From an uncultured Myxococcales bacterium (GTDB lineage Bacteria; Myxococcota_A; UBA9042), in assembly GCA_903842345.1 (NCBI GenBank), contig CAIMLR010000017.1, forward strand, positions 33,960 through 97,959: a stretch of DNA of 64,000 nt. Direction: 5' to 3'. The notes beneath the pieces are model-generated. The model was not told where the DNA came from and made no database searches. It saw nothing but the letters and a program-made list of their open reading frames with translations. Below, one piece after another: positions 8,296 to 58,936 of this stretch. A program made the position numbers and the translations under genes. Position 1 is the stretch's first letter. Each line of letters starts with the position of its first letter.

Positions 8296-8304
8296 CGGCC
8301 GGGT

Positions 8305-14723: not shown

Positions 14724-14726
14724 GCC

Positions 14727-26935: not shown

Positions 26936-27009
26936 GCGATCCCGCAACACATTCGCCCGCTGGGCCGCATCCGGTGCGTCCGGAGCGGCTCGGCTGGCGG
27001 GGAGGCAAC

Positions 27010-28026: not shown

Positions 28027-28061
28027 CGTCAGCGCGACCGGCATCGACAACAGACGGCCTC

Positions 28062-28088
28062 GGGCAGTTTCCACGGTGGAAACTGCCC
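28062..28088 (+). terminator. Perfect 12-13 bp inverted repeat (GGGCAGTTTCCAC-G-GTGGAAACTGCCC) followed by GCGCTTTTGG. Intrinsic terminator/attenuator-like hairpin between the E2 and JAB genes.
   Basis: Read directly. Located 36 nt after the E2 stop and 28 nt before the JAB ATG. Confidence 0.4.
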
Positions 28089-28115
28089 GGGGTCGTCGCG
28101 CTTTTGGAGACGAAC

Positions 28116-28715: not shown

Positions 28716-28718
28716 GCA

Positions 28719-29342: not shown

Positions 29343-29354
29343 CCGGAGGTTTCT

Positions 29355-29456
29355 ATGAGCTGGATTTTCACGGCCCTGACCAACTTCGCAAGGATCCTCG
29401 ACCTCTGCATCGCCATCGCGATGTGGGTGGGCGGGACCCGGGCGGCGTGGATCTGA
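29355..29456 (+). CDS. Candidate small hydrophobic peptide (33 aa, MSWIFTALTNFARILDLCIAIAMWVGGTRAAWI)
   Basis: ATG 12 nt after the E1 stop, with GGAGG 7 nt upstream. Below the ORF-track size cutoff, so read directly from the sequence. Confidence 0.3.
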   Translation: MSWIFTALTNFARILDLCIAIAMWVGGTRAAWI

Positions 29457-29531
29457 CGCACGCTGCGGCGTGACAGCGAGAAGTCCGGGGCGGTCAAGGT
29501 GGCCGTCCCGGGCTTTTTGCGATGGAGCAAA

Positions 29532-29930
29532 ATGAAGCCATTGGCAAAGAACGCGGGCGACATCCTGGACGCGCTGACAGCGGGACTGGAGATCGGCGGC
29601 GCGCGCAAGATCGACAACGGCACCTACATGGCCGTCCACGTGGACAGGCTGAGCCAGGCGACTTTTAGCGTCGCGCACTACTTCAAGCAGAACGGCGAAC
29701 TGGTGTGCGACCCGGACGGCGTGTTCCTCAAGACCGCCGCCGGCTGGTTGCCCGTGACGCTGCAGCTCAGCACCGGCCATTACACCGTGGCGGTCGAGTT
29801 GGACGGCAACGACAAGCCGACAGGTTGGCGGCCGCGGCAGTACCGCGAGTTGCACTCGTTCGCGGCGATGTGGCTGCGAAACATTCGCGAGCAGCAAGGC
29901 GGACTGCGCAATATCACCGAAAATACATGA
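29532..29930 (+). CDS. Hypothetical protein (132 aa)
   Basis: ORF co-directional with the Ubl-E2-JAB-E1 cluster. No recognisable motif. Confidence 0.45.
   Translation: MKPLAKNAGDILDALTAGLEIGGARKIDNGTYMAVHVDRLSQATFSVAHYFKQNGELVCDPDGVFLKTAAGWLPVTLQLSTGHYTVAVELDGNDKPTGWRPRQYRELHSFAAMWLRNIREQQGGLRNITENT
29906..29927. repeat. Short AT-rich motif copy in reverse orientation (rc: TGTATTTTCGGTGATATTGCGC), overlapping the last codons of the 132-aa ORF
   Basis: GTATTTT-CGGTGATA family. Confidence 0.4.
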
Positions 29931-44100: not shown

Positions 44101-47064
44101 GCTCGTGCACACGTTGCCGTCGTCGCATGTCACCAAGCTGCCGACGCAACCGCCAATGGCGTTGCACACGTCGCCTTGGCTGCATGCGTTGCCGTCGCTG
44201 CATGAGGCGCCCGGCTGGGCGACATAGGCACACATGCCCGTTGCTGGGACGCAGGTATCAAGCGTGCAGGCGTTCTGGTCGTCGCATCCCGTCTTGACGC
44301 CCGGCACGCAGCCGCCGTTCGCGCAGTTGTCACCGACCGTGCATGCGTTGCCGTCGGTGCAAACATTGGCGTTGGCCGTGAACGTGCATCCGGTGGTGGC
44401 ATCGCACGCGTCGGTCGTGCACACCTTGCCGTCAACGCAGACGGCAGCGGGGCCGGGCACACAGTTCCCCCCCGAACATGCGTCGTTCAAGGTGCAGACG
44501 CTGCCGTCGGCGTCACACGCTGTGCCGCCGAGCGAACTGCCGTTGTAAGTGCACGCGCCCGTCGCAACGTCACACTTGTCAGCCGTGCAGATCTGGCCGT
44601 CGTCGCACACCTTGGTCGCGCCAGCGACGCACACTTTCGCCACGCAGTTGTCGCCGACAGTGCAGGCGTTGTCGTCGGCATTGCACGGGGCTGTATTGGC
44701 CGTATGCACGCACCCGGTGACCGCGTCGCAACTGTCGCTCGTGCAGCCGTTCTTGTCGTCGCAGTCCGACTTCGCGCCTGCCAAGCACGTGCCGGCCGAG
44801 CAGCTATCGCCGACCGTGCAGATCGAGCTGTCCGCATTGCACGTCGCCCCATCCTGAGCCGGCGCGTTGTAAACGCAGAGGCCAGACTTCACGTCACAGC
44901 TATCCGCGGTGCAGACAACGCCGTCATCGCACAGCTTCACCGGGCCGGCGACACAGACCTTGCCGAAGCACGAGTCGTCTTGCGTGCACGCATTGTCGTC
45001 TGCGTTGCATGGGGCAGTGTTGGCCACGTGTGTGCAGCCTGTCAGCGCGTCGCAACTATCGGTCGTGCAGCCGTTCTTGTCGTCGCAATCGGCCTTCGCG
45101 CCTGACTGACAAGTTCCCGCCTGGCAGGCGTCGCCAATGGTGCAGACGCTACCATCGGCATCACAGGGCCCGCCGTTCTGGGCCGTCGGGTCGTAAAGAC
45201 ACGCGCCGGTGGCCGAGTTGCAGACGTCCGCCGTGCAGAAGTTCCCATCATCGCAGACCTTGCTCGCGCCCGGCACACAAGCCTTGTTGACGCAGGCGTC
45301 GCCGACCGTGCATGGGTTTTGGTCGGCATCGCATGGCGCGGTGTTGGCTGTGTGCGAACAGCCCAGCTTCGAGTCGCAGGCATCGTCCGTGCAGGGATTT
45401 GCGTCGTCGCACGATTTGCTGGTGCCGGTGCAGGTTCCGGACGCGCATGCGTCGTCGAGCGTGCAGGCGTTGCCGTCATCGCAGGACAGCCCGTCGGCCG
45501 CCTTGCTGGTCACGCATTGTCCGCCGATCGGATCGCACGCGCTCAAGTAGCAGGCGCCAGCTGAAGTGCATTTCTTCGGGGCACCGGATCCGCACTGACC
45601 GGAATCGCAAGTGTCGCCGAGCGTACACGGGTTGTCGTCCGAGCACGGCGCACCTGTCAGCGGCGTCGGCGCGCAACCAGTCGGGGCGTCGCACGTGTCG
45701 TCGGTGCACGGATTGCCATCGTCGCAGTCGACTGGCGTGCCCTTGCAAACGCCACTGCCGCAAAGATCCTTCGAGGTGCACTTGGTACCATCGTTGCAGG
45801 GGATGCCGTCGGTGACCGACACGGAACTGCACTTGCCGGATAGCGACTCGCAGCTGTCGGTGGTGCACGCGTTTCCGTCGTCACAGGAGACCGGCTGCCC
45901 TTTTTGGCATTTGCCGCCTTCGCAAGCGTCGCCCTGCGTACATGCCGACGCGTCCGCATCACAGGGCGCGCCGTCGTCATCGGTCTGGGTACAGCCCTTC
46001 GCGGGGTCGCATGTGTCGACCGTACAGGGATTCGTGTCGTCGCAGTTCTTGAGCGGACCGGGCGCGCATGCGCCGACCTTGCAAATGTCGCCGACCGTGC
46101 AAACGCTGCCGTCCGCATCGCAGGGCGTGCCGTCCAGCGCCAGGTGGGCGCAGCCGTTCTTCGCATCGCAGGTGTCCGTCGTGCACTGCTGAGCGTCGTT
46201 GCACGTGCCTTCATCGGTCTGGCCGTCGCAGTTGTTGTCGATGCCGTCGCAGACCTCGGCCGTCGGCGGCAACGCGGTGCAGGCACCCAGCCCCTTGTCG
46301 CCGCACTGCCGGGTGCCGGCACACTTACCGACGATGGCACCTGAACCATCGGTCACCTGGGCAAAGCACGTCGTCCCGATCTTCTTGGCGGTTGCCACCG
46401 CGTCGCACGGGCACGTGCCGAACGTGTCGCCGACTTTGTCCGGCTTGCGCACGCACTGGGTCGTCATGGTTCCCTCCGCTGTCTTCGCGGGTGCGCAGGT
46501 ATAGCCGTCCGGGCAGGCCGTTGCGCTGCCACAGGCGATGCCGCAGAACAGGCCGACGGCGCCTTCAACGACGCAGGCGGTGCCGTTGAGCCCGGGCGAC
46601 TTGCAGTCGTCGCTCTTGAGGCACGGCTCGCAAAGGCGGCCAGTGGCGTTGACGCAGACCGAGATGAGGTCCGAAGACGCACTCGTCACCTGGGCACAGG
46701 TGTACCCGGCCGGACAGCTATCCACGCAGTTCCGAGCACACGTCTTGCCGCCTGGGACGGACGCATCGTCAAGGCAAAGGGCAGAGTCGCATTCGGAGTT
46801 CTGCGCGCAGGGGCATCCGCTGCTGCCGGGACATCCGACGGTGTCCACCAGCGACTGACCGTCGAGCACGTCAATTAGCGCGACAGAATCATGCATGTCC
46901 TCGGATTTGCCGTCGGTCACGACCACAACATCCTGATCGGCCAGCGCGGCGTCCACCTCGGTCGCGGGAAAGTTTTGCGGCTTGGCCGAGCAGGCGACGA
47001 GCAGCGCCAGCCCAGCCGCCAAAAACCGCAGTCTGAAAGCGTTCTGACGACGGTGTTGAGCCAT
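41188..47064 (-). CDS. Giant secreted lipoprotein (~1958 aa) with dozens of Myxococcus-type cysteine-rich repeats and a C-terminal formylglycine-generating-enzyme (FGE/SUMF1) domain
   Basis: Signal/lipobox MAQHRRQNAFRLRFLAAGLALLVAC (ATG at 47064). Long arrays of CDDGN(A/P)CT(T/D)D(S/T)C repeats. C-terminal FGE-like LPAGTFTMG...GGLSQDYPWG...RGSSWYE...GFRCARTL. Confidence 0.8.
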   Translation of the reverse strand: MAQHRRQNAFRLRFLAAGLALLVACSAKPQNFPATEVDAALADQDVVVVTDGKSEDMHDSVALIDVLDGQSLVDTVGCPGSSGCPCAQNSECDSALCLDDASVPGGKTCARNCVDSCPAGYTCAQVTSASSDLISVCVNATGRLCEPCLKSDDCKSPGLNGTACVVEGAVGLFCGIACGSATACPDGYTCAPAKTAEGTMTTQCVRKPDKVGDTFGTCPCDAVATAKKIGTTCFAQVTDGSGAIVGKCAGTRQCGDKGLGACTALPPTAEVCDGIDNNCDGQTDEGTCNDAQQCTTDTCDAKNGCAHLALDGTPCDADGSVCTVGDICKVGACAPGPLKNCDDTNPCTVDTCDPAKGCTQTDDDGAPCDADASACTQGDACEGGKCQKGQPVSCDDGNACTTDSCESLSGKCSSVSVTDGIPCNDGTKCTSKDLCGSGVCKGTPVDCDDGNPCTDDTCDAPTGCAPTPLTGAPCSDDNPCTLGDTCDSGQCGSGAPKKCTSAGACYLSACDPIGGQCVTSKAADGLSCDDGNACTLDDACASGTCTGTSKSCDDANPCTDDACDSKLGCSHTANTAPCDADQNPCTVGDACVNKACVPGASKVCDDGNFCTADVCNSATGACLYDPTAQNGGPCDADGSVCTIGDACQAGTCQSGAKADCDDKNGCTTDSCDALTGCTHVANTAPCNADDNACTQDDSCFGKVCVAGPVKLCDDGVVCTADSCDVKSGLCVYNAPAQDGATCNADSSICTVGDSCSAGTCLAGAKSDCDDKNGCTSDSCDAVTGCVHTANTAPCNADDNACTVGDNCVAKVCVAGATKVCDDGQICTADKCDVATGACTYNGSSLGGTACDADGSVCTLNDACSGGNCVPGPAAVCVDGKVCTTDACDATTGCTFTANANVCTDGNACTVGDNCANGGCVPGVKTGCDDQNACTLDTCVPATGMCAYVAQPGASCSDGNACSQGDVCNAIGGCVGSLVTCDDGNVCTSDTCNTASGCVFAPNTLPCVDGNACTINDVCAAAACSGLPVTPAAYCDDNNGCTADTCDPVGGCQHKSATGACSDDNPCTVGDLCSSGKCASGTNTCSCTTTADCAGQEDGNACNGTLFCDTSSVPYGCKVNPATVVTCSTASDNFCRKNTCNPTSGACSLVAQNSGQLCYADGTVCTAGDACVGGVCNAGGPLNCDDGNPCTDDSCDPIAGCKHAANVSPCSDNNPCTLNDKCAGNTCVAGAAMACSDGNACTTDACSGGACAFTNNSAGCDDGNLCTSGDKCAGGTCGGAPVTCMASDQCHGSGSCDLASGQCSNPNKVDGVLCDDANACTTSDVCTSGLCGGAAVVCAASDQCHNVGTCTAGTCSNPKKIDGAACTDGNACTQSDTCVAGACSGASPIVCTALDQCHLAGTCDSASGSCSNPAKANGSACSDGNACTAPDTCQGGGCSSGSAVVCAAIDQCHGVGACNSGTGVCTNPVKNDGTTCADGNACTLVDTCIAGACTGSNSVTCGALDQCHAAGTCDTSSGLCSNPAISNGTTCSDGNACTTSDKCTTGVCGGTAIVCTALDQCHAAGVCSAAACSNPTKSDGSACNDGNACTTSDICASGSCAGTATNCDDSNVCTADSCNATGTCVHTTTTSCDDGNTCTTDSCNAIGCQHANNAVNCNDGNTCTTGDACAAGTCKGTVPVCGNAACDGCETALTCATDCATPGMVVLPAGTFTMGLPASKATEFDQEPDHQVTLSAFELDKAEVTVAQYTTFYNQLGSGQKCSGYNQASFLCGNPANSDYPAYPPTMTGCNFGSTGVGQHPINCVDWFQADAYCAWAHTGGRLPTEAEWEYSARSGGLSQDYPWGSATPSCTYAVWYEIGFGCNTGSEWPVCSKTAGNSGQGACDLEGNVQEWCSDWYDKYPAAAQTNPGGPAVGGDKVYRGSSWYESGAANQMRATYRLNTTPVWRYPGLGFRCARTL

Positions 47065-47221
47065 CGCGCCGCTGAGCCGAAGCCCCGTTCGCCAGTCCAC
47101 GTTCACCCCTGGCGTCAAGCACAAGTTGTCGTGCTGATGTTGACGATACTACCGCCAATGACCAAGCAGCAAGGGTCTATAGCGGGTTCAATGTCAACGA
47201 TGCGCCGCCGACACTTCCGGC

Positions 47222-47551
47222 ATGGCGACCACCGACGACCTCAAGCACTTCGGCCAGAACCTCAAGACCTTGCGCAACGCCCGCTCGTGGACGCAGGACC
47301 ACCTGGGCGAGATCGCGGACCTGAACCCCAAGTACCTGGGCGAGATGGAACGTGGCGAGCGCAACCCGTCGCTGGACGTGCTTTGGCGGCTGGCCCGTGC
47401 GCTCGGCGTTGACGCGGCGGAGCTGGTGGGCGACGAGCTGACGCGGCTTGATCGCGAGGAGCTTTTGCGGCGTGGAGCCGAGGAGCTGGGCCGGCAATCG
47501 GGTGAGGAGTTGCGGACCTGGCTACGTCTGGCGCGGTCACGGCGGCAGTAG
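47222..47551 (+). CDS. XRE-family (Cro/C1-type) HTH transcriptional regulator
   Basis: FGQNLKTLRNARSWTQDHLGEIADLNPKYLGEMERGERNPSLDVLWRLARALGV is a classic HTH_3 segment. Divergent from the giant lipoprotein gene. Confidence 0.75.
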   Translation: MATTDDLKHFGQNLKTLRNARSWTQDHLGEIADLNPKYLGEMERGERNPSLDVLWRLARALGVDAAELVGDELTRLDREELLRRGAEELGRQSGEELRTWLRLARSRRQ

Positions 47552-47577
47552 CGGGCAGCACGCCCGCCTGCCACCCG

Positions 47578-47605
47578 CCGGTATTTTACGTGATACGCGT
47601 GCGGC
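47578..47605. repeat. Short AT-rich motif copy (GGTATTTTACGTGATACGCG) flanked by CGCCG/CGGCG arms, ~27 nt after the XRE stop
   Basis: GTATTTTACGTGATAC core. Confidence 0.45.
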
Positions 47606-47668
47606 GCCCAACTATTCTTCAGAATCGTCTGCGCGCACACGATGCCGACCGCGGACCGGTCCAGTTGG

Positions 47669-49018
47669 TCACCGGCAAACCGCGGCGCTCCGCCCGCCCT
47701 GCGCGCGCAACTCCCGCACTTCCTGCCGCAACTGTTCAATCTGCCGCTGCTGCTCCTGCAGCGTCGCGACCGACAGGCTGAGGTAGCCGTACAGGTCGAC
47801 CATGTCGCGCTGCGCGTCCACCGCAGTGCCGCCCGGCTGGTCGTCGATGATGAATCCGAGATGCCGCGGCGCCTGCGGTCCTGCTGCGGTGTATCGGTAC
47901 GTCGCCAAGCGCGTGTCCAGCAGCTCCGCCGCCAGGCTTTGCCGCTCGACCGTGTCGACATACCGCACGTCCGACTTGAACTTCGCCTTGGAAATCGGGC
48001 AGCCGACCGCCTTCGGGTCCGAAGTCGCGCACTTCAGGAACTGCCCGCAGCCCGCCTTGGCGTCGCACTCCTGGCCTTCCGTGCTGCACGCGTCGCCGGC
48101 TTTCTCGGTCGTGCAGAGCGACACGCCTGTTGTCGGCGTCCAACCGCCGGGACAATCCGGGTAGCCGCAGGTCGTATAGTAATTGTGCGCTTTGGGCGAC
48201 TGGCACGCGCCGGTGGCCAACACGCTGACGCCGGCGGCTGCTGCCTCACATGCGTTGCCGTACGTCTTACCGTCGCAACCGCAGACGGGCGCGTAGATCT
48301 TGTCACACGCCTGCGGCTTGGTCCGGCACGTGCCCTGGCTGCTGCCGCATTGGCCGTCCGCGAGCGCGCAGTACTCGGTCGTGGCGCATTGCGCGGCCGG
48401 CCCCATGCTAAGCGGGTTGCACGCCTTGGCTGTGACGGCGCACGTGCCCATGTGGTCGACCGAGACGCCAGCCTGCGCCGCCGGACAAGAGTCGCCGTAG
48501 TCCTTGCCGTCGCAGCCGCACACGCCACCTGGAGGAGGAGGCAGCGCGGGACAGGTTTGCGGGATCGCTTTGCACACGCCCGGACCGACGCACTGGCCGA
48601 CGGGAACGGCGCAGAACTCGCCGTTGTTGCACACCAGGGGGCCACTGGTTGACGGCACGCATGCGTGGCCAATGTCGGGCGCGCACTGGCACGTCTCGCA
48701 GCCGTTGGCGTCGATCAGGATGCCGTTGGGACACTGTGGCGCGCAGCCGAATGCGGGACAGCAGACGCCGGCGGCGTTGCAGAGCTGGCCCAAACCGCAC
48801 TGGCCGCCGGATTTGCAATTGGCGTCGGCCTTGCTTGCGTCGATGGCGTCCGTGACGGCGACATCCGTGGCGCCCGAGACGGCGTCGGTGGTGTCGCTGA
48901 CGACGCCGAGATCCGTATTGATGCTGTCTGCCGTGACGGCGCCGCTGTTGGTGGGACTGTCGCAGGCGGTGAGCGCAAGCGCGAGGCACAACATCAGAAT
49001 GTTCAGGTAGATGCGCAT
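47669..49018 (-). CDS. Lipoprotein with multiple Kazal-like Cys-rich domains and a C-terminal peptidase-S74-type (tail-fibre intramolecular chaperone-like) domain
   Basis: Signal/lipobox MRIYLNILMLCLALALTAC (ATG at 49018; the track extends to 49354). Kazal-like CGCDGKTYGNAC and CGCDGKDYGDSC. C-terminal SDVRYVDTVERQ...HLGFIIDDQPGG...LSVATLQEQQRQIEQLRQEV. Confidence 0.55.
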   Translation of the reverse strand: MRIYLNILMLCLALALTACDSPTNSGAVTADSINTDLGVVSDTTDAVSGATDVAVTDAIDASKADANCKSGGQCGLGQLCNAAGVCCPAFGCAPQCPNGILIDANGCETCQCAPDIGHACVPSTSGPLVCNNGEFCAVPVGQCVGPGVCKAIPQTCPALPPPPGGVCGCDGKDYGDSCPAAQAGVSVDHMGTCAVTAKACNPLSMGPAAQCATTEYCALADGQCGSSQGTCRTKPQACDKIYAPVCGCDGKTYGNACEAAAAGVSVLATGACQSPKAHNYYTTCGYPDCPGGWTPTTGVSLCTTEKAGDACSTEGQECDAKAGCGQFLKCATSDPKAVGCPISKAKFKSDVRYVDTVERQSLAAELLDTRLATYRYTAAGPQAPRHLGFIIDDQPGGTAVDAQRDMVDLYGYLSLSVATLQEQQRQIEQLRQEVRELRAQGGRSAAVCR

Positions 49019-49180
49019 GACCAGCTCCGGTGGCGGGATGAGCGCCGTGGTGCGCCGACCGACGCGACGCGTGCCGTCAGGGTAGCACAATTGGAGATTG
49101 GGCAGTCGCGGCAGACGGCCGGCGCGAGCGGCAAGAAGCCAAGCGGCGATGGGGAAATATGCCGGAGACAGCTGGACCTG

Positions 49181-49207
49181 CGGCCGAATCACGGAAAATA
49201 CGCGGTG
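49181..49207. repeat. Short AT-rich motif copy in reverse orientation (rc: GCGTATTTTCCGTGATTCGG)
   Basis: Lies just downstream of the stop of the 49224-50534 minus-strand gene. Confidence 0.4.
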
Positions 49208-49223
49208 GGCACCTGCCTCGGCG

Positions 49224-50534
49224 CTACAGTGCGCCGATAGCGTCGCGAAACTGAGCAAGGACGTCTTCTTCGGTCTCCCGCAGCAGCCGCCAACAGATTC
49301 CCCTCCGCTTTCCGTTCCATTCTGTGACGCCCAGGGCTTCCAGAATTGGCCCAAGATAAGACGCCGCTTGGGCGTGGGTCACTTTGCCTGTCGCGTCGTA
49401 GATGAACTTCCCCAGTCCGTCCTTCTCGTCGCCGGCGTGCATCTTCGTGACGTTGTTGGCCAATGGAAACCAGCCCTGACGAAAGTCGCCGAACAGTTTT
49501 CTGAGCAGTGCTTCGGTCTCGACGAGAGTGAACCGGTCCATTCGGTTCGCGTCGTTGCGGGACTCAAGCGCATCGAGCGATACCTCGAAGGAAAACGTCT
49601 TCGCGTTCGCGCCGCCTCGGGTCGTGCAACCGGCTCCCGCAAACCCAGCCGCAGGCACTGCTTCGCCAGCATCCTCCGCGCCCGCGAAACGCCCAAGGTC
49701 GTAACCAATCATGAAGAGCGCCGCCTCCAGCGACCGGAGCGGTTCCGGCTGTGTTCGGAACTGCGACGTCGGACTCAGCCGAAGAACCTCGGCCAGTAAC
49801 CAACTGGCGGCGACATTCCAGCGCGCGTGTGCGCTTGCAGGTGCCAAGGTCGCAAATCGCAACGCGCCGCGGCTTGGATCGCGGTTCTTCGGGTTCACCA
49901 TGTTCTGGGCCTCTTTGGCCGCACCCCAGGGGAACGCCAAGTTGGCCGGGACCGCCGCGACGCCATTTTCCACACAGTACTGGGCAATCAAGTGCCCAAG
50001 CGCCGCGCCGACGCGACCGTCGTAGATGACGTAGTCGTCGAGCAGGAGCGAGTGAACTTTGGTCAGCCCGGAGTTCATCCGTTTGACGGACATCTGGCCC
50101 AGCCGAGCCGTGTCGGGGGCGAGCAGCCCCATGTCGTGTCGGAGCGCTTCGACAAGACCGAGCGGATCGCCCTCGGCCCAATCGACGTTGCCGTTGGCCA
50201 CGCCGCCCCACTTGAACACCAAGCAACTCGCTTGGACGGTCCCGTCGGCGTCTCCGGTGGACACCGCACGTCTGAGATCTGTTCTGAGCTTGGCCAACAC
50301 GCGCGTGCTCGCTCCAAACGTGGACTCTGCCTTCGTGCGTCCGTCTGGAAAGGTCACGCGGAAGGGCCATGAATACTGTTCGAACGCGTCCCAAATTGAA
50401 TCGCACTGCCACAGGATGCCGTTTCGGCGATTGACGTACGCGTGCGGTAGGCTGCCGGGGCGGTCCAGCCGCTCCGCAAGCCACTGGGCGAAGCCGGCCA
50501 CGTCAGGATCGTTCAAGTAGGCTGTTCTGTTCAT
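49224..50534 (-). CDS. Hypothetical protein (436 aa), last gene of a 3-gene minus-strand operon
   Basis: ORF. 4-nt overlap with the upstream 115-aa ORF. Confidence 0.45.
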   Translation of the reverse strand: MNRTAYLNDPDVAGFAQWLAERLDRPGSLPHAYVNRRNGILWQCDSIWDAFEQYSWPFRVTFPDGRTKAESTFGASTRVLAKLRTDLRRAVSTGDADGTVQASCLVFKWGGVANGNVDWAEGDPLGLVEALRHDMGLLAPDTARLGQMSVKRMNSGLTKVHSLLLDDYVIYDGRVGAALGHLIAQYCVENGVAAVPANLAFPWGAAKEAQNMVNPKNRDPSRGALRFATLAPASAHARWNVAASWLLAEVLRLSPTSQFRTQPEPLRSLEAALFMIGYDLGRFAGAEDAGEAVPAAGFAGAGCTTRGGANAKTFSFEVSLDALESRNDANRMDRFTLVETEALLRKLFGDFRQGWFPLANNVTKMHAGDEKDGLGKFIYDATGKVTHAQAASYLGPILEALGVTEWNGKRRGICWRLLRETEEDVLAQFRDAIGAL

Positions 50535-50878
50535 TTGTCTTCCTCGCTTGATCCCGACCGAGACGTGGTTTCTAAGGGCCGGTCAGTACAATCCTGACGT
50601 AGCCGTTCGCATAGTGCCCGAGCCAAGTCGATCATCCCCTCGTGCATCTCGTCGGCGCCCTCGGCGTGGAAGCGCAGCGTCCCAAACTTCTCCTTGATCT
50701 GCACCGCGACGACCTGCGTCGCCCCGTCCGCGTCCGTGTGGAACTGCAGGCGCGTGCAGAGTAGATCCAAGAGGTCGAACCAGCCGTCGCCGCACGCAAT
50801 GCCGGCTCCGGACCCCTGCAGGCGCCCGAGGATCCGACCGTGACGCGTGAACAGCAATTCTTGAAGTTCGGGGCTCAC
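50531..50878 (-). CDS. Hypothetical protein (115 aa)
   Basis: ORF. 4-nt overlaps with both flanking genes. Confidence 0.4.
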   Translation of the reverse strand: MSPELQELLFTRHGRILGRLQGSGAGIACGDGWFDLLDLLCTRLQFHTDADGATQVVAVQIKEKFGTLRFHAEGADEMHEGMIDLARALCERLRQDCTDRPLETTSRSGSSEEDK

Positions 50879-52458
50879 GGCGCTTCCTCAAAGGGCCCCG
50901 GCAGCCGCATCGCCGGCCGCGCTTGGGGCCGAAAATCAAGCGCCATCAACCGCACCCGGCACTGCACGCACACGGACATCCAGGTCGCTTCGCTACGCCC
51001 ATCCGCAGATTCCTCGGGCGTGCGCGAGACAAAGAACCAACGAACGTGGTCCTCCGTGCGGCAGTCTGGACACCGTCGGCCGCGACCGCGAAGGAAGCTC
51101 GGCGTCTCCATGAGCGCTTCACGCTCGGGTTCGCTCAGCACGGGGGATGCAGCGGTTTCGGCATTCGAACCCGACCGCGGCTTCCTTGACGGGCTCCGCT
51201 GCGCCCACCGCCGTTCCGGCGTGTCTGCTGCGCTCCACGCTGCCAGTTGCGCCTCAGGGACCCGAAGGTCGGCGCTATCGAGCAATTCGCGCCAGACGTC
51301 CTCGGGGTCACGGTCCGCGATTTGGCGCAGCGCAACAAACACCTCGTCATTGTAACGCATCTGCCAGTCTGGCGAGTCGAGCAGCGTGCGCGCAGCCACA
51401 CGGTTCATCGTCCACGCCCGAAGCAAGGGTGCGCCACCTTCAAGGTGCGGCGCCCCTGCGAGCGCGCGGATCGTCGACGGCGCGACGGCCGAGACCAGCG
51501 TGGGCCACGCAGCCAAGATAGCGTCGTCTGCTTCGTTGGCCCAAATGAGGTGGTCGTACGCGACGACGATGCGCGGGACGAGCTCCGTCGGGACGGGGCG
51601 CTCGGCCAGCCAACCAAGGATTTCCCGAAGGTCTTCGGGCAGCGCCAACCTGTCGACCAATACCCGGGCCAGCGCTTCCATCAGCGCGTTCCTTGGTGGC
51701 TTGCCGTCTTCATCCGGCGCAACTTCTGCCTCCGTATGCGCCGGCAGCTCATAGAACCGCCGGTTGTTTTTGTGCACGCTTTCCTCGGCTTTGTCCTCGC
51801 ACACGAGGCGCCCGCGCGCGGTCCATTCACCAAGCTGGTTGTTCTCGCCGACGACAAGCAGCGTCGGCAAATAGACCCAACTTCCTGAAAACCGGCGGAT
51901 TCTGCTGCTGAAGGATCGCCAATGGTGCGTTCCGAACCCGTGGTCCTGTGCTACGATGGCGAACGGCGCCATCCATGGGTACAGCGCGATCAGCGCCGAA
52001 AGCGCCTCGACGTTGAGAATCAGTAGGCTGAACCGTTCCGGGGTTCCGCGCAGCGTCGTCTCATACACGCCCCAGAGCCCAAAGCCAGGCGTGACGTCTG
52101 CGACCGGCATCTGTTCTGCCGGCAGCAGCCAGAGGCTCGGGCCAATGAACTCCGCGGCATCGAACTCAGTGAGCCCGACAAGCCGATGGTGCGCGAACCC
52201 CTGGCCATTGCGATGATTTTCGGTCATCGCGGCCGCGAAGGCGTCTCTACTAACGTCGAGGTCGAGGAAGATGAAGGAGCGCACGATGCCGCTCAACTGC
52301 CGAACGGGCGAGCTGTCGTCACCGCTGCCTGGGTAAACAAGCGCGCTTTCAAGCAACTGGCGCCGCCACAGGCTGGGGCCGGCCTGGATGCCGTCGGGCG
52401 TGAGCGCCGCGAGCCAATCGGGATTGGGCTGGGCGAGGTGCGCAAGGGCGTCGAGCAT
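50875..52458 (-). CDS. Hypothetical protein (527 aa) with a C-terminal Cys4 cluster (CPDC...CVQC)
   Basis: ORF. Possible zinc-ribbon RRCPDCRTEDH...SVCVQCRV. Divergent from the ADP-ribosylglycohydrolase gene. Confidence 0.45.
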   Translation of the reverse strand: MLDALAHLAQPNPDWLAALTPDGIQAGPSLWRRQLLESALVYPGSGDDSSPVRQLSGIVRSFIFLDLDVSRDAFAAAMTENHRNGQGFAHHRLVGLTEFDAAEFIGPSLWLLPAEQMPVADVTPGFGLWGVYETTLRGTPERFSLLILNVEALSALIALYPWMAPFAIVAQDHGFGTHHWRSFSSRIRRFSGSWVYLPTLLVVGENNQLGEWTARGRLVCEDKAEESVHKNNRRFYELPAHTEAEVAPDEDGKPPRNALMEALARVLVDRLALPEDLREILGWLAERPVPTELVPRIVVAYDHLIWANEADDAILAAWPTLVSAVAPSTIRALAGAPHLEGGAPLLRAWTMNRVAARTLLDSPDWQMRYNDEVFVALRQIADRDPEDVWRELLDSADLRVPEAQLAAWSAADTPERRWAQRSPSRKPRSGSNAETAASPVLSEPEREALMETPSFLRGRGRRCPDCRTEDHVRWFFVSRTPEESADGRSEATWMSVCVQCRVRLMALDFRPQARPAMRLPGPFEEAP

Positions 52459-52634
52459 GGCGTCTGACCTTCAGCATTCGGGTTGGATCTGTGGCAGCGA
52501 CCGTGACGGGCGCATCTGATTGGAGCGAAACAACGTGTAGCAGGTTGTCCAGAGGCGCGCCACCTACTAAAACACCATACCCTCGAAGAATCCGCGCCAG
52601 CGGAGCTGTCCATGTGAAAGGAGCCGAATTCCCC

Positions 52635-53894
52635 ATGGCTGACGCGCAATTGACCGCCATCCAACTTGACCGGGCCATGGGCGCGCTGCTCGGCCTCGCG
52701 TGCGGCGACGCACTCGGCGCCCCGTACGAGTTTCTGCCACGCGTTCCGTACACGACGCCAATCGGCATGGTCGGCGGCAACCGAATGCGCTGGGCGCCTG
52801 GGGAATGGACGGACGACACAGCCATGGCGCATGGCATTGCGTCTGTCGCAGCGACGGGCGTCGACTTGCGCAGCGTGACGGCGCAGGACCAGATCGCGCG
52901 CAACTGGTGGGCGTGGTCCGAGGGTCCCGTCGACATCGGCCGCCAAATCAGCGCCGTCATGTTTGTCGCGGAGGAAGCGGGGACAGCCAAAGCGATGCGG
53001 ACTGCGGCCATGCGCTACCATGAGGACAATCCGCATCGCAGCGCAGGGAACGGCGCCCTGATGCGCACTGCACCCGTCGCGTTGGCCTACCTGGGCGACG
53101 GCGACGAATCAGCGCTCTGGCAGGCTGCCCAGGAAATCGCCACGCTGACGCACTTTGCGCGAGACGCCCAGGAAGCTTGCGCACTCTGGTGCTTGGCGAT
53201 TCGGCACGCGGTGCGGTTTGGCACCTTCGACGGCCTACGCCTCGCACTGGAGCGCCTTGATGCCGAACGCCGCGCGCTATGGTCCACGCGGTTGGCCGAG
53301 GCCGAGCACAAACAGTCCTGGCAGTTCCCGAACAACGGCTGGGTCGTCGCAGCCTTGCAGGCCGCTTGGTCGGCGATTGTCCACGCCGCGGAGCCGGTCG
53401 ATCGACCCGAGCTGACGCTTTGTGCCGCGCAGCACGCGTCGCACGCGATCGAGCGCGCAGTCCGATGCGGTGACGATACGGACACGGTCGGGGCCATCGC
53501 CGGCGCGCTGGCGGGAGCGCGATGGGGTGCGGGCGCGCTGCCGCGGTCGTGGCTGGCGAAGATTCACGGATGGCCAGACGCCACGGAGGACGACCTGAGA
53601 CGGCTTGCCGTGCTGACGGCCAGTGGCGGCAGAAGCGCAGCGGTCCCGCCTTCCTCCGCTTTCAGTGACGTGGACAATGCGGCGCCGCGCCTCGCGTACG
53701 GCCGCCTGAGCGCCGTCCACCAGAACGGACGATTTGATCGCCTGTATCTTTCGCACTCGGACGAAGTGCTCATGCGTCGCGGCGGCGCGTGGATTGCGGC
53801 CGACGCTGCGCCTACGGCGGCGCAACCGGTGGAGGCGGACGCGATTGCGATGTTCGATGAGGCGGAGATGGCTGGAGAGGTCCAGCCACCTTGA
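52635..53894 (+). CDS. ADP-ribosylglycohydrolase (ARH/DraG family)
   Basis: N-terminal signature LGLACGDALGAPYEF..., later GNGALMRTAPV and DTDTVGAIAGALAGA. ATG at 52635; the track ORF begins at 52491. Confidence 0.75.
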   Translation: MADAQLTAIQLDRAMGALLGLACGDALGAPYEFLPRVPYTTPIGMVGGNRMRWAPGEWTDDTAMAHGIASVAATGVDLRSVTAQDQIARNWWAWSEGPVDIGRQISAVMFVAEEAGTAKAMRTAAMRYHEDNPHRSAGNGALMRTAPVALAYLGDGDESALWQAAQEIATLTHFARDAQEACALWCLAIRHAVRFGTFDGLRLALERLDAERRALWSTRLAEAEHKQSWQFPNNGWVVAALQAAWSAIVHAAEPVDRPELTLCAAQHASHAIERAVRCGDDTDTVGAIAGALAGARWGAGALPRSWLAKIHGWPDATEDDLRRLAVLTASGGRSAAVPPSSAFSDVDNAAPRLAYGRLSAVHQNGRFDRLYLSHSDEVLMRRGGAWIAADAAPTAAQPVEADAIAMFDEAEMAGEVQPP

Positions 53895-54030
53895 ACGCGG
53901 GTGGTGCAAGGTCCGAAGGTGGCAGCAAGCGGGCGGACTAACTGCATGAAGCCGTGCAGCCAGCCCAGACTGCCGCCCGGCCGGCGGGTCCCTATTCTGC
54001 TGCCGAAAGTCGCGACCCGACGATAGGGTT

Positions 54031-54056
54031 GCGCGCTATCACCGAAAATACGCGCC
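54031..54056. repeat. Short AT-rich motif copy in reverse orientation (rc: GCGTATTTTCGGTGATAGCGCG), flanked by GCGCG/CGCGC
   Basis: Immediately downstream of the 54069 minus-strand gene stop. Confidence 0.45.
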
Positions 54057-54068
54057 AACGAGCGTCTT

Positions 54069-54557
54069 CTACACCATCAACTCCAGCATCTTCTTGCCTT
54101 CCATCCGGTCCAGCCATCGCAGCACCGCCTCGCCACGGTTGCGCGTCGTAATTGTCGCGGTGCCGTTGCGGCGGATGACGACGTCCGTCTTCATGCAGCG
54201 GCCGCGGAGGTAGTCGGTCGACACGTGCAGCTCGCCATCCTCGTAGCGGAAGTGCCGGACCAGGTCGAAAACGGTGAAGGCGTCGCCCGCCACGAAATCC
54301 GGCTCGGAGCTGCCGCGCGGGCGACCGTCGATGAACGACAACATCTGGACGCAGAAGGCGAATCCAAGTCCGCCCCATTCGTGGTCTCGGGTGCGCTCAT
54401 CGGCGTCGCCGTCCTCGGGCTCGCCCAGCAGGAGCTCCAGGCAGACGTACGTGTCGTCGCCGCCCGGTGTCGTTTGGATCTGCTGCGCGGAAATGGTGAA
54501 GTCCACCAGCGCGCCCTTTTGTAGAAGCTCGATCTCGGCTTCGCCTGGATAGTTCAT
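54069..54557 (-). CDS. Hypothetical protein (162 aa), translationally coupled to the phosphatase gene (ATGA overlap)
   Basis: The ATG at 54557 overlaps the TGA of the upstream phosphatase ORF. The track merges it into a longer ORF, 54069..55007. Confidence 0.45.
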   Translation of the reverse strand: MNYPGEAEIELLQKGALVDFTISAQQIQTTPGGDDTYVCLELLLGEPEDGDADERTRDHEWGGLGFAFCVQMLSFIDGRPRGSSEPDFVAGDAFTVFDLVRHFRYEDGELHVSTDYLRGRCMKTDVVIRRNGTATITTRNRGEAVLRWLDRMEGKKMLELMV

Positions 54558-55186
54558 GGGCTGCTCCTCACTTGGGTCGGCGGTGCCACCGCGACGCTGA
54601 AGACGTGCTGCGCCTGCAATTCGTTCTCGATGGCGCCGGTCCGCGCGCGCCGCGCCGACGCGATGGCGTCGCGGGGCGGCACGCCAAACTCGACGAGGAT
54701 TTGTGCGGCCAGCAAGCCGGTGCGCCCCATGCCGCCCTTGCAGTGGATGAGCAACCGCTCGCCGCGACACAACCGAGCGCGAATGTCCGATCCGACGCCG
54801 TCGCGCCAGTGGCGGACAAACGACCTGTCGGGCGCACCCCGGTCGGCGATCGGCAGGTGCCACCACGTCAGGCCCAGTGCGCGCACGGCCTTGCCAAGTT
54901 CCGGGACGTGCAACTCGCGCAGTTCGTCGTCGGTGACCAGCGTGATGACGCCGGACGCGCCCCAAGCTTTCAACGCCGCCAGATCGATCGTCAGGTCGCG
55001 GTCCCAAGGTCCGGTGATCGCGTCCGTCTGCTTCTTGCCAGGGCAGAACGTCAAGCCGAGCACACCGGGCTGGTCGGCGGCGGGCAAGCTGGCGATCAGC
55101 AGCGGGTGCGTGAGGCTGTTGCGGATGGGCTTATGCATGCTGGCACGATACGGCGACGCCACTTGCAGCGTCAACCGCGGCGGCAA
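54554..55186 (-). CDS. Dual-specificity/tyrosine protein phosphatase (CX5R)
   Basis: Active-site motif IHCKGGMGRTGLLAA (HCxxGxxR[ST]). Alternative ATG at 55138. Confidence 0.7.
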   Translation of the reverse strand: MPPRLTLQVASPYRASMHKPIRNSLTHPLLIASLPAADQPGVLGLTFCPGKKQTDAITGPWDRDLTIDLAALKAWGASGVITLVTDDELRELHVPELGKAVRALGLTWWHLPIADRGAPDRSFVRHWRDGVGSDIRARLCRGERLLIHCKGGMGRTGLLAAQILVEFGVPPRDAIASARRARTGAIENELQAQHVFSVAVAPPTQVRSSP

Positions 55187-55323
55187 GTTCCGCCTTTACA
55201 TCCGCCGACGTTTCCAAGAACATCGCCGCAGGATCGAGTTGGCCGCCCCACTTCAGCGCGCCAGCCGGACGTTCGGGTCCCGTCCTGCCTCAACATTGTC
55301 GCCGTTTACGCCAAGGCTCGCGC

Positions 55324-55944
55324 TTGGTCGACTCGCTGTATGAAGCCGCAAGGAGCCCGATGCCGTACACCCGAATCACGCTCGAACAGGGCACCGACGA
55401 CTGGCTGGCGTGGCGCACGCAGGGCATCGGCGCGTCGGAAGCGGCGGCCATCCTGGGCGAGAACCCGTGGAAGTCGCGCCGCGCGCTGCTGGCGGAGAAG
55501 TGCGGGCTGGCGCGTCGCGACTTCAACAGCGCCGCGATGGACTTTGGCACACGGACGGAGCCTGAGGCCCGCGCGCACTACGTCGCGGCCGTGGGCGTGC
55601 AAGTTGAGCCCGCCTGCCTGCAGAGCACGGCGCACGACTGGCTGCGCGCCAGCCTGGACGGGCTGTCAGCGGACGGCACGCGCGTCGTCGAGATCAAGTG
55701 CGGCCCAAGCGTGTACGCCAAAACCGCGCAGGACCGGCGCCCGCCGCGGTACTACGTCGGGCAGCTACAGCACATCTTGGCCGTCACGGCGCTGCCGGGC
55801 ATCGACTTCTGGTGCTACCTGCCAGGCCAGCCGCCGGTGCACGTGGCGGTGGCGCGCGACGACGCCTACATCGCGCGGATGCTGGTCGCCGAGGCGGCGT
55901 TTTGGCTGGAAGTTCAGGATTTTCGGGCACAGCGGGGGCGGTAG
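55324..55944 (+). CDS. YqaJ-like (lambda-exonuclease-type, PD-(D/E)xK) viral recombination exonuclease domain protein
   Basis: WLAWRTQGIGASEAAAILGENPWKSRRALLAEK matches the YqaJ N-terminal signature. E.K occurs in VVEIKCG. Confidence 0.6.
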   Translation: MVDSLYEAARSPMPYTRITLEQGTDDWLAWRTQGIGASEAAAILGENPWKSRRALLAEKCGLARRDFNSAAMDFGTRTEPEARAHYVAAVGVQVEPACLQSTAHDWLRASLDGLSADGTRVVEIKCGPSVYAKTAQDRRPPRYYVGQLQHILAVTALPGIDFWCYLPGQPPVHVAVARDDAYIARMLVAEAAFWLEVQDFRAQRGR

Positions 55945-56982
55945 ATGGACACGGCAGACACAGATTTTGTGTGGACCGAGCTGGACGAGCAAGTGGCGGC
56001 GATTGACGGCGCCACTTACCCGGAGCTGCAGCGAATGCTTGCAGACGGGGCGGACCCGAATGTGCGCACGCCGGACGGCGTTTCCGCGCTGGTTTCGGCC
56101 TGCATGGGCGATCAGTGGCGCTACGACATGCTGGTCGCTGCCGGCGCGCAACTGCCGGAAGACGACCTGCCGCTGGCGCTGCACTATGCCTGCGAGCGCG
56201 GGTGCAAAAGCGGGCTGGTGGACGAACTGCTCCAACGCGTGGCGCACCTGGACCCGCACGTCTGGGCTCCGATGGCGATGCACGGCGCGACGCACTCGGG
56301 CGATGTCTGGCTGCTCAAGAAGCTGTTGCGAGCGGGCGCGCCGGTGAATTGCCGCGACGAGCGCGGGCGGACGCCGCTCCACATGGCGGTTGGATTCTAC
56401 CGCGACTTGAACATGCTGGTGCTGCTGGTCGACGCGGGCGCCGACGTTGACGCAGAAGACGATGCGGGCGCAACGGCGTTGGACTACGTGGAACGTCGGG
56501 AAGGGATAGCGTGTCCGGAAGATCATCCCCGCGGGCCGGATGAACTCGCGGCGGCGGAATGGCTGCGCGCGCTGATGCGGGCTTCGCAGACACGTGCTGG
56601 CGCGCTAGCGTACCCGCGCGGCAGGCTGTCGGGCCGGCTCGATGCGACTCGGGATGTCGGTCCATACGTCCTGTATGCGAAAGTCATCAGCGAGCCGGTC
56701 TCCACATTTTTCGCTGCCCACCGCCGTGACGATGATGCCGAGCGTCTACTTGTGCGCGTTCTTCACGACCATCTGGCGGATGACCGGCGGCACGTCGAGG
56801 CATTTCTGGCGGAGGGGCGCGCGGGCATGGCGTTGGGTCCGACCGTGGATGTGCCGGTGCTCGACGTGGGCCAGGCAGACGGCGCGGCGTACTGGGTGTT
56901 GGAGTTCGAGCGCGGCGTGGAGCGGGCATGTCGGCCGCAGCCGCCGGTGAAGTGGCGCCAGATTCCGCGGTGGTTGCCGTGA
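55945..56982 (+). CDS. Ankyrin-repeat protein
   Basis: Repeated ANK units (GATHSGDVWLLKKLLRAGAPVNCRDERGRTPLHMAV..LLVDAGADVDAEDDAGATALDYV). The ATG directly follows the stop of the previous gene. Confidence 0.75.
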   Translation: MDTADTDFVWTELDEQVAAIDGATYPELQRMLADGADPNVRTPDGVSALVSACMGDQWRYDMLVAAGAQLPEDDLPLALHYACERGCKSGLVDELLQRVAHLDPHVWAPMAMHGATHSGDVWLLKKLLRAGAPVNCRDERGRTPLHMAVGFYRDLNMLVLLVDAGADVDAEDDAGATALDYVERREGIACPEDHPRGPDELAAAEWLRALMRASQTRAGALAYPRGRLSGRLDATRDVGPYVLYAKVISEPVSTFFAAHRRDDDAERLLVRVLHDHLADDRRHVEAFLAEGRAGMALGPTVDVPVLDVGQADGAAYWVLEFERGVERACRPQPPVKWRQIPRWLP

Positions 56983-57000
56983 TACGGCGGTATCGGGCAC
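56979..57000. repeat. Short inverted-repeat motif GTGATACGGCGGTATCGGG overlapping the ankyrin gene stop
   Basis: GATAC-GGCG-GTATC palindrome, related to the GTGATAC family. Confidence 0.35.
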
Positions 57001-57100
57001 TTCAACGGGTCGAACGGGCCGCGGCCACCGGCCACTTGTGTTCGGCTGAGGCACATGCGATTGTCGGCTACACCGTGAGCACTGATGCGCGACTGCGCGA

Positions 57101-58936
57101 ATGGAGACTGAAATGTCGAGCATCAAGGACGAGTTTTGGGGTCCGGAGCGCAATGTCACCGCAAGTGACTTGGATGGAATGCTTGCTCGGTTCCCGGTTC
57201 AGACACCGGCGAGCGTAGCGTTTGAGCCTGCCAACGCGCTAGAAAAGGTCCTTGAGACCTACATCGCGTTGGAGTTCGAGAACGTGACCGGGATTAAGCC
57301 GCTCGCGGTCACGACGAGTCGCGCGTTGACGAGTGAAGCCGACGTGGTCGCGATAGACGAGCTGGGGCGCGTGCATCTCGTCGAGGTGAAGAAGGACAAG
57401 ATTACTCGGGCCGATGTGCGTCAAGCGACGCAGTACATGCTGCGGTCCGTCTTTGCAGACCGGTTTGATGCATTTCCTGATAGTTTGGGCGACGATGAGG
57501 AACGGGCGCGGTCGCTGGCTGCGGCGCTCGCCGGCGCCGTGAGCGGGCTGGACGAAACCAAAGTCGGCTACGCCTTGTACCAGGAGCTGACCAAAGTCGA
57601 CCCGTCACTCGCGGCGTTCGCCAAAATCACTCTCGGCCGCGAGCCCACCGCATACAGTTGGCCGACGGACAGACAGAGCCTTGCCGGCACACGCGTCCAC
57701 ATGGCCACACTTCTGGCTTGGGCTCGCCGCGCCGAACTTTGGCACGGCGATGACTTGCCAAGTGCCATCGAGCGGCTCATCAGCGCTGGGCACGATCGGG
57801 CTGGCTCATCTGCGCTCTGGGCACGCCTCTCGCGGGTGACGCGGGACACGTTGCCGCGCCCGTCTCGTGCCCTTGTGTTGTGGCTTGTCGCTCCCCGCAT
57901 CAGCGAAGAGGCGCTCGTGGAAGTTCGTCAACTTCGATCTGTCGGTGTGGACGTTCGGGCGGTTGAGGTGGTTCTGCGTCGACATGCAACGTGGACGGCA
58001 GCAGGCACTCGCGGGTGGCGCGCCTCGATTCGACGTGAGCATGCACCGGAGAGAGATCGTGTGGAGTCCGATGCGAGCGCGGCGCTCCGAGACGGCAAGG
58101 GGCAGCATGCCCGACTGGAGTCTGAGTACTACCTGGAACGCTCACCGAGCGACCGCTCAGCAGACGCAAGCCACGGTGCACACGTTGACTTCCCTAGTCT
58201 GACCGTCCACTGGACCAACCGGACGGCCGTGCAGTTCGGCTCGCTGCACGACGATCGCTGGGAGGCGGCGTCCGCGACCCTGGGCGTCCCTGCGCTTGAG
58301 TTGAAGACGACTATTGAAGCGTGGAGCAGTCGCGCAGAGCGCGAGCATGACTGGTCCAACGTTCTTCCGGGGCCGTGGCTCGCTGACAGGCTGCGAGTTC
58401 ATTCCCGAAACGCAAACGCGGGCGAGGGGAAGATCGGTGTCGATTTTCTGAACACATGGACGCCTGGACTATTCGCCGGCTTGCTCTTCCGCGGCAGCGA
58501 CCATGGGATTGCCGCAGCCGACCGCACCAAGGGAGTGGACGTGGTCTGTATCGTCGACATCCTGCAAGGACTCCTTGGGAAAGAACCCAGCAGACGGAAG
58601 GAAAAGCTCGCGGACACGGGCGCGTTTGGCGCGTACGCGCGTTTGGCTCGGGCCCTCAACGAGGATTCCGCCCTTCGCGCAAAAGGTTGGCAGGTCCACG
58701 ACGGAACGAGGCAACTGAAACCAAATCTGTGGCATCCGCTGGCCCTGCGCCGCCCGTTGGTCGACGTGCTCAACGGCCAGTGGCTCCCAGAAGCCGGCTA
58801 CGGCGCGTGGGTCGCAGCCCTGGAAGAGGCTGTAGCGGCGATCACGTCACAGCCCGCGTTCGCCGACTTTGCGCGCGAGTTGGACAAAGCACACACGAAG
58901 TCCGACAAACAGGGTGCGGTTGCCGCAGATGGATGA
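57101..58936 (+). CDS. Hypothetical protein (611 aa) with a possible N-terminal PD-(D/E)xK nuclease-like motif
   Basis: DVVAIDELGRVHLVEVKKDK is a D...E.K-like segment. The rest is unrecognised. Confidence 0.45.
   Translation: METEMSSIKDEFWGPERNVTASDLDGMLARFPVQTPASVAFEPANALEKVLETYIALEFENVTGIKPLAVTTSRALTSEADVVAIDELGRVHLVEVKKDKITRADVRQATQYMLRSVFADRFDAFPDSLGDDEERARSLAAALAGAVSGLDETKVGYALYQELTKVDPSLAAFAKITLGREPTAYSWPTDRQSLAGTRVHMATLLAWARRAELWHGDDLPSAIERLISAGHDRAGSSALWARLSRVTRDTLPRPSRALVLWLVAPRISEEALVEVRQLRSVGVDVRAVEVVLRRHATWTAAGTRGWRASIRREHAPERDRVESDASAALRDGKGQHARLESEYYLERSPSDRSADASHGAHVDFPSLTVHWTNRTAVQFGSLHDDRWEAASATLGVPALELKTTIEAWSSRAEREHDWSNVLPGPWLADRLRVHSRNANAGEGKIGVDFLNTWTPGLFAGLLFRGSDHGIAAADRTKGVDVVCIVDILQGLLGKEPSRRKEKLADTGAFGAYARLARALNEDSALRAKGWQVHDGTRQLKPNLWHPLALRRPLVDVLNGQWLPEAGYGAWVAALEEAVAAITSQPAFADFARELDKAHTKSDKQGAVAADG

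Follow-up and report, generated by a model that had tools for sequence, protein, structure and literature searches.

Host systems that undo or exploit the ADP-ribosylation imposed by invaders have been predicted, and the closest described relatives of the locus considered here are the 'ARG-centric' systems that Iyer, Burroughs, Anantharaman and Aravind predicted computationally (Viruses 2022, PMC9503650, section 3.8). Such a system is defined by an ADP-ribosylglycohydrolase (ARG; here ARH) without a coupled ADP-ribosyltransferase (ART) or sirtuin. Its partners are phosphatases of the rhodanese-phosphatase (R-P), calcineurin-like, HD or HAD types; Nudix- or WYL-helix-turn-helix (HTH) regulators; and chaperones, and its variable modules include a restriction endonuclease (REase)/helicase, Macro/NADAR, and ARPP. 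A phosphatase is fused or tightly linked in about 55% of the systems, and a Nudix-HTH or WYL-HTH regulator is present in about 42%; the proposed role is the reversal of virus-imposed ADP-ribosylation (PMC9503650). The present locus lies within 64,000 nucleotides of contig CAIMLR010000017.1, positions 33,960 to 97,959, from an uncultured Myxococcales bacterium (the window; G+C about 65%). It comprises an ARH gene, a nearby phosphatase gene, and a divergent operon encoding proteins of 527, 115, and 436 amino acids (aa), and as such is a compact candidate for a host system of this sort. With moderate confidence, we take it to be a mobile, ART-less conflict module centred on an ADP-ribose hydrolase, of the ARG-centric kind, with components that are not named in PMC9503650.

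Described systems of other kinds offer partial likenesses. DarT is found with the ARH-type DarG3 plus a helicase (DarHTG), and its antidotes, Macro, NADAR or DarG3, interchange (PMC13069673). Like the ART/ARH pairs DraT-DraG, Tre1-Tri1, and DarT-DarG3, the window has an ARH of the DraG/Tri1 type that is tightly linked to a partner operon, and, as in DarHTG, helicases (here UvrD-type) occur in some related loci. Unlike these pairs, it has no detected partner with an ART fold, and its ARH scores well under the equivalog cut-offs for Tri1 and DraG. In IetAS, the AAA ATPase IetA is paired with the protease IetS. An IetA-like AAA ATPase is the usual partner of the family defined by the N-terminal domain of the 527-aa protein (527N), and the same AAA family is present in the window, but there is no IetS-like protease, a 527N protein stands in that position, and the AAA and WYL genes of the window are about 25 kb away. 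As in operons regulated by WYL proteins (BrxR/CapW), a WYL-WCX regulator is the usual neighbour of both the 527N family and the family of the 436-aa protein, and a WYL regulator is present in the window. Studies of CapW and DriD reportedly show that such regulators respond to single-stranded DNA (ssDNA) or DNA damage. Winged HTH (wHTH)-WYL-WCX regulators are reported to sense ssDNA and to control both DNA-damage regulons and defence (PMC11662680, PMC13004042).

The ARH (52635..53894, + strand) is a protein of 419 residues. Its open reading frame opens at 52491, and the product that begins with ATG at 52635 is identical, by exact-sequence look-up, to the publicly called gene. It matches Pfam ADP_ribosyl_GH (PF03747) with an E value of 5.8e-50 over profile positions 1-286 of 287, and its closest PDB matches are a Thermus ARH (2cwc), Serratia Tri1 (6dre), and DraG. 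In alignments to 2cwc and to Tri1 6dre, GDALGAPYE, WTDDT, and GDDTDTVGA, the catalytic and metal-binding motifs, are all preserved. The catalytic domain, which is DraG/Tri1-like, occupies approximately residues 10-315, and beyond it lies a C-terminal stretch of about 100 aa to which no function is assigned. The protein is not an equivalog of either Tri1 or DraG: it scores 105.7 bits against NCBIfam NF041672 (Tri1; cut-off 490) and 102.7 bits against TIGR02662 (DraG; cut-off 337). Neither nif nor type VI secretion system (T6SS) genes were seen among the neighbours examined.

One gene away from the ARH, and convergent with it, is a two-gene operon whose first gene (54554..55186, - strand) encodes a 210-aa DSP/PTP-type phosphatase of the R-P superfamily. 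Its Pfam matches, CDKN3 (1.4e-12), PTP-SAK (7.7e-09), and Tc-R-P (1.7e-08), are all above gathering scores, and its active-site loop reads HCKGGMGRTG. The second gene (54069..54557, - strand) encodes an uncharacterised protein of 162 aa and is translationally coupled to the phosphatase gene through an ATGA overlap, read at the junction. Searches of family libraries and PDB sequences gave no match to the 162-aa protein, which is possibly an accessory or chaperone-like partner of the phosphatase. Like the ARG-centric systems, then, the window has an intact ARG, no detected ART or sirtuin, and an adjacent R-P phosphatase. It also shares with them neighbours of the nuclease type (YqaJ in the window; REase, RecB-like, and UvrD in related loci) and a setting of rapid module swapping in mobile defence islands. 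The WYL or NrtR-Nudix regulators characteristic of the class are found in related loci; unlike the published systems, the window copy has no adjacent regulator of either sort.

The divergent operon begins across an intergenic region of 176 bp (52459..52634) and runs on the - strand through the genes for the 527-aa (50875..52458), 115-aa (50531..50878), and 436-aa (49224..50534) proteins. All four genes reported in the first-pass annotation are present at these positions, and the 176-bp spacing it gave is exact, given the ARH start at 52635. Direct reading of the sequence likewise bears out the 4-nt stop/start overlaps, GTGA between the 527-aa and 115-aa genes and ATGA between the 115-aa and 436-aa genes, and GAGGAAG-like ribosome-binding sites precede both junctions. 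Neither a consensus sigma-70 site nor convincing operator repeats were found in the intergenic region, whose sequence was also read directly. Homologues found elsewhere show that all three open reading frames are real genes: the 436-aa protein has 165, the 527-aa protein has 5 over its full length and 171 for its N-domain, and the 115-aa protein has 2640 cluster representatives at a cut-off of E<=1e-3. Scans against Pfam, NCBIfam, PHROG, and PADLOC produced only weak sub-threshold matches to the three proteins. Against PDB sequences they gave no match or only matches with E>=0.66, and PDB profile searches with the family alignments A1, A2, A4, and A7 gave nothing meaningful. The earlier statement that these proteins carry no recognisable motifs is too strong: the 527-aa protein has a Gly-rich loop, an invariant Asp, and a zinc ribbon.

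A functional link joins the ARH to the operon, at the level of a core in which the ARH diverges from a 527 gene that is followed by a 115-like gene; the divergent ARH/527 arrangement recurs in relatives with different surroundings. Both the 76% and the 70% relatives of the 527-aa protein likewise have a divergent ARH gene, at a distance of about 140-160 bp. Downstream, the 76% relative is followed by a gene of 119 or 100 aa and the 70% relative by a gene of 249 aa. Of these two loci, one belongs to an integrase island and the other to an element with a RepB primase and a resolvase, in which the third gene encodes 632 aa. The 42% relative (locus L143), too, is followed by a clear 115-family gene (phmmer 2.6e-28). 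Since the third genes differ among the 527 relatives, the third position of the operon is variable, and here it is taken by a member of the 436 family. Enzymes of three unrelated folds that remove ADP-ribose (ARH, PARG, and NADAR) recur near both the 527N and the 436 families. Locus L143 (1026-1811 and 3599-5137) also carries a second, standalone 527N paralogue and a 272-aa protein that looks kinase-like by eye and has no Pfam match.

The 527-aa protein is made up of a probable Rossmann N-domain (about residues 1-245), a helical middle (about 258-424), and a C-terminal zinc ribbon (about 466-505), CPDC...CVQC, of the form CxxC...CxxC. The structures that match its model (predicted local distance difference test score, pLDDT, 71; medium confidence) are Rossmann folds of the methyltransferase-like kind. 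In the N-domain model, beta strands and alpha helices succeed one another in a Rossmann-like order: strand 1 (40-43) leads into the Gly-rich loop YPGSGDD, and the invariant D66, an acidic residue, ends strand 2 (61-65). Searches against known methyltransferases gave no significant sequence match. Full-length homologues number 5, and the N-domain family has at least 171 members; for the metagenome scan, alignment A5 was used, alignment A4 being too diverse. Among 58 loci that carry 527N genes, an IetA-like AAA ATPase is near in 21, usually in the order AAA, a protein of about 165 aa, 527N. A WYL regulator is near in 13, a metallophosphoesterase in 8, and DUF6557 in 7; literature searches on DUF6557 or PF09859 returned nothing relevant. 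A protein with the 436 N-domain (436N) is near in 5-6 of the loci, once in the order seen in the window (527N, small gene, 436N), NADAR in 2 (directly downstream in L121), and PARG in 1. The 140-aa gene that lies between 527N and 436N in locus L090 was tested as a homologue of the 115-aa protein and is not homologous; because it is unrelated, the position between 527N and 436N is itself variable. The 527-aa protein had no match among the PLSDB plasmids, and neither the 436 nor the 527N family had a match in the viral contigs of IMG/VR. As both are absent from the 2.9 million viral contigs searched, 436 and 527N are host or mobile-element genes.

In the 436-aa protein, a conserved N-domain (residues 1-283) is joined by a disordered linker (284-299) to a C-domain (300-436) that contains a winged helix. 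The confident model of the protein (pLDDT 93) matches known structures in the winged helix only; the N-domain had no PDB structure match, and Foldseek against BFVD returned nothing at E<=0.001. On the strength of its model, the N-domain may represent a new fold. An HhH-GPD DNA glycosylase, considered for the N-domain because of the spacing of K159 and D172, was rejected, as the HhH-GPD fold is not seen, and a Pfam census of 87 family members at E<=1 found no recurrent weak family. The 165 homologues, at about 30-45% identity, come from Dethiobacter, Pseudomonas, Burkholderia, Methylomonadaceae, and many metagenomes, and at least 364 relatives occur among GTDB species genomes. The family is built around its N-terminal domain (about 280 aa), which stands alone, is joined to a C-domain of the window type, or is fused to other modules: NUDIX with an NrtR winged helix, the end of an ARPP-1 domain, DUF2442, HTH, or the C-terminus of UvrD/PD-(D/E)XK. 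The last of these is seen in a 1571-aa metagenomic protein (L121, 9613-14328), which consists of a UvrD helicase, a PD-(D/E)XK nuclease, and 436N at residues 1032-1320; upstream of it are NADAR genes and a gene of the 527N family. PLSDB has 124 plasmids that also encode the 436N domain, for the most part large megaplasmids of Pseudomonas aeruginosa. On the plasmid NZ_CP073083.1, a 436N protein (357208-358155) is annotated as hypothetical, with Fic-family and DEAD/DEAH helicase genes nearby.

The neighbourhoods of the 436 family were counted over 80 genomic loci. In 45 of them, a wHTH-WYL-WCX regulator is encoded no more than 1.5 kb from the 436-family gene, mostly in divergent orientation. In P. 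aeruginosa L004, in L028, and on a P. luteola plasmid, the 436 homologue or its WYL partner has an inositol-monophosphatase (IMPase)-ARH fusion as its immediate neighbour. The P. luteola locus consists of a RecB-like nuclease, the IMPase-ARH fusion, and a WYL gene divergent from 436N, then an HD phosphohydrolase divergent from a second WYL gene and a restriction endonuclease. In a Methylomicrobium locus, NADAR, SIR2, Oxygenase-NA, WYL, Metallophos, a 436 homologue, a 527N homologue, and an AAA ATPase are found together. Elsewhere, the family loci are situated in mobile islands of defence genes, alongside BREX, GmrSD, Wadjet-like JetA, and restriction enzymes, and the distribution of the family is sporadic and horizontally transferred in appearance. 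In all, two sizeable families that are absent from Pfam, 436 and 527N, are now placed in an ADP-ribose and defence network, and the recurrent set of WYL, IetA-like AAA, 527N, Metallophos, and 436N is not recognised by catalogues such as PADLOC. The text of PMC9503650 does not name the 527, 115, and 436 families, the IMPase-ARH fusion, or the IetA-like AAA partner.

The 115-aa protein is one of a very large family found in viral contigs and mobile elements; besides its 2640 representatives, there are at least 436 matches in IMG/VR. The family motif is GDGW..L.D.LC..Q...Q.KEKFG.LRF. The window copy is without the C-terminal CxxC...C..H knuckle of Cys and His residues that is present in most members (alignment A7). 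On viral contigs, the family gene adjoins or overlaps that of a metallophosphoesterase homologous to the one encoded at 25028-25753 of the window, the two being within 4 kb of each other in 15 of 80 loci; loci with the pair side by side are L149, L168, L169, L185, L194, L199, and L224. Domain fusions join the family to an NT5C-type 5'-nucleotidase, to PTH2, and to DUF6998. The metallophosphoesterase adjacency together with the NT5C fusions suggests that this small domain partners with nucleotide phosphoesterases.

How these parts might work together can be sketched as follows. The ARH, helped by the phosphatase, would remove and process ADP-ribose that an invader's ADP-ribosyltransferase has put on host macromolecules. 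The 527-aa protein, with its putative adenine-nucleotide-binding Rossmann domain and its zinc ribbon, would form with the 115-aa protein a unit that senses or processes nucleotides. The 436-aa protein, which combines a candidate new N-domain with a winged helix and whose family is elsewhere fused to UvrD-PD-(D/E)XK, could be a sensor or effector directed at nucleic acid. In most other genomes, a divergent WYL repressor would govern the 527N and 436 families.

Several observations weigh against the assignment to the ARG-centric class. Only 7 of the 80 loci of the 436 family include an ARH within 8 kb, and these are phylogenetically clustered. An ARH beside a full-length 527 gene is confined to the 70-76% relatives, and none was seen on the short contigs of the 42-50% relatives. 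No WYL or Nudix regulator adjoins the ARH within about 20 kb, the nearest WYL-WCX gene, which is the only one in the window, being about 27 kb off, and Pfam detected no recognised chaperone (vWA, SseB, or TY-Chap1-3) beside the ARH. The likely identity of the 527 N-domain as a Rossmann domain of the class-I-methyltransferase type draws on a medium-confidence model and on motif positions, and the biochemical roles proposed above for the individual 527-, 115-, and 436-aa proteins are held with less confidence than the class itself. A literature search found no experimental tests of the ARG-centric class or of ARH-based defence.

The first-pass annotation had read the locus as a possible ART/ARH toxin-antitoxin or effector-immunity module in which one of the three operon proteins would be an ADP-ribosyltransferase. 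The functional link between the ARH and the operon is supported; an ART toxin among the partners is not supported. Pfam, NCBIfam, PADLOC, and PDB sequence searches detected no ART signature in any of the three proteins, and, by the first three of these, no ART or SIR2 in any called product from 47669 to 58936; for the 115-, 162-, and 611-aa proteins, this is a comparison of sequence. Fold comparison with the R-S-E and H-Y-E types of ART covered the 436-aa and 527-aa models, so that the absence of an ART-like fold is a result for two of the three proteins: the former model is matched through its winged helix and the latter through a methyltransferase-like Rossmann fold, neither of them ART-like. 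The 115-aa protein, judged by its sequence and size, is a common small protein of viral contigs and is too short for an ART domain. Furthermore, most members of the 527N and 436 families have no ADP-ribose hydrolase nearby, and an obligate toxin-antidote pair therefore fits poorly.

A broader proposal has two forms. Either the locus belongs to an ADP-ribose/nucleotide immune system that has not been described, in which a new-fold 436N acts as an enzyme or lesion sensor on modified (for instance ADP-ribosylated) nucleic acid together with 527N, its IetA-like AAA partner, metallophosphoesterases, and WYL, and to which an ARH and an R-P phosphatase have been added in the window copy; or 527N is a Rossmann enzyme outside the ART fold that ADP-ribosylates its targets and is reset by ARH, PARG, or NADAR. 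We regard this pair of possibilities as rather unlikely. Another reading is a cryptic form of the toxin-antidote idea, in which the Rossmann N-domain of the 527-aa protein or the N-domain of the 436-aa protein would be an unconventional NAD+-using ADP-ribosylating enzyme, the ARH its antidote or resetter, and the outcome abortive infection. Some sirtuins ADP-ribosylate targets. The best argument for a cryptic enzyme is that three structurally unrelated hydrolases, ARH, PARG, and NADAR, occur beside 527N genes, an exchange that resembles the 'equivalent-antidote displacement' of DarT with Macro, NADAR, and DarG3 (PMC13069673). 527N also has two features typical of proteins that bind adenine dinucleotides or S-adenosylmethionine, its Gly-rich loop and the acidic residue of strand 2; these, and the conservation of the tightly spaced divergent arrangement of ARH and 527, are likewise consistent with it. 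We hold a cryptic toxin to be decidedly unlikely.

A module for DNA damage and repair under WYL-type control is quite improbable. The 436-aa protein and its helicase-nuclease relatives would recognise or excise adducted DNA, with ADP-ribosylated bases as an example, the ARH would remove the adduct, and the 527-aa protein would modify or sense nucleotides. The ssDNA sensing and control of DNA-damage regulons reported for wHTH-WYL-WCX regulators (PMC11662680, PMC13004042) argue for such a role, as do the UvrD-PDDEXK-436N fusion, the winged-helix C-domain of the 436-aa protein, and the co-location of Oxygenase-NA (AlkB-like), SIR2, and NADAR in loci L009 and L090. However, the ARH is nearest to hydrolases that act on protein and are arginine-specific, the loci sit among the defence systems listed above, and their distribution is sporadic. 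Least probable of all is an orphan ARH, serving as broad-spectrum Tri1-like immunity or as a housekeeping de-ADP-ribosylase, whose place next to a defence operon has no functional meaning: Tri1 and DraG are among its closest structural-sequence relatives, the window is a patchwork of unrelated systems, and no ARH is present on the short contigs of the more distant 527 homologues, but the divergent ARH/527 pair is present in at least two other, differently flanked elements, ARH, PARG, and NADAR are linked independently to the 527N and 436 families in unrelated taxa, and the neighbours examined include no T6SS or nif genes.

A WYL-WCX regulator (21413-22801, + strand; Pfam; phmmer 1.9e-42 against the WYL protein of L009), an IetA-like AAA ATPase (22871-24916, + strand; phmmer 7e-114 against the AAA protein of L009; PADLOC IetA 5e-30), and the metallophosphoesterase already mentioned (25028-25753, + strand; Pfam) form a cluster at a distance of about 25 kb from the ARH locus. 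Elsewhere, 527N and 436 homologues are flanked by members of these WYL and AAA families and by metallophosphoesterases in general; the window metallophosphoesterase itself has no match to that of L009. No second copy of 527N or 436N lies beside this cluster, which possibly acts in trans with the ARH locus.

The window as a whole is a defence island, with type 2 BREX of the PglW kind, the WYL-AAA-Metallophos cluster, and a cluster of ubiquitin-like, E1, and JAB genes; no tRNA genes that would mark the boundaries of the island were found in the window. Six large co-directional genes at 358-18157 (+ strand), encoding proteins of 1463, 1174, 1215, 924, 443, and 700 aa, look like a type 2 BREX/Pgl phage-exclusion system, the first of them matching PADLOC PglW with E = 0 and 1089 bits. 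At 26687-29930 (+ strand) are genes for a ThiS-like ubiquitin-like protein, a 350-aa protein, a weak match to Prok-JAB, a ThiF/E1-like protein, and DUF6908, which may constitute a defence cluster for ubiquitin-like conjugation. The genes at 41188-49354 (- strand), which encode a 1978-aa Cys-rich repeat protein and a 561-aa Kazal/antistasin protein, appear unrelated to the ARH locus; the C-terminal end of the former looks FGE-sulfatase-like by eye, and a small XRE-like HTH gene, judged from the sequence, lies between the two at 47222-47551. On the far side of the phosphatase, at 55324-58936 (+ strand), a gene for a YqaJ-type nuclease abuts that of an ankyrin-repeat protein and is followed by a gene for a 611-aa protein. 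The C-terminal part of the ankyrin-repeat protein has a weak PD-T4-6 kinase-like match and the 611-aa protein a short NucS-like/PDC-S11 match, and these may be further defence genes.

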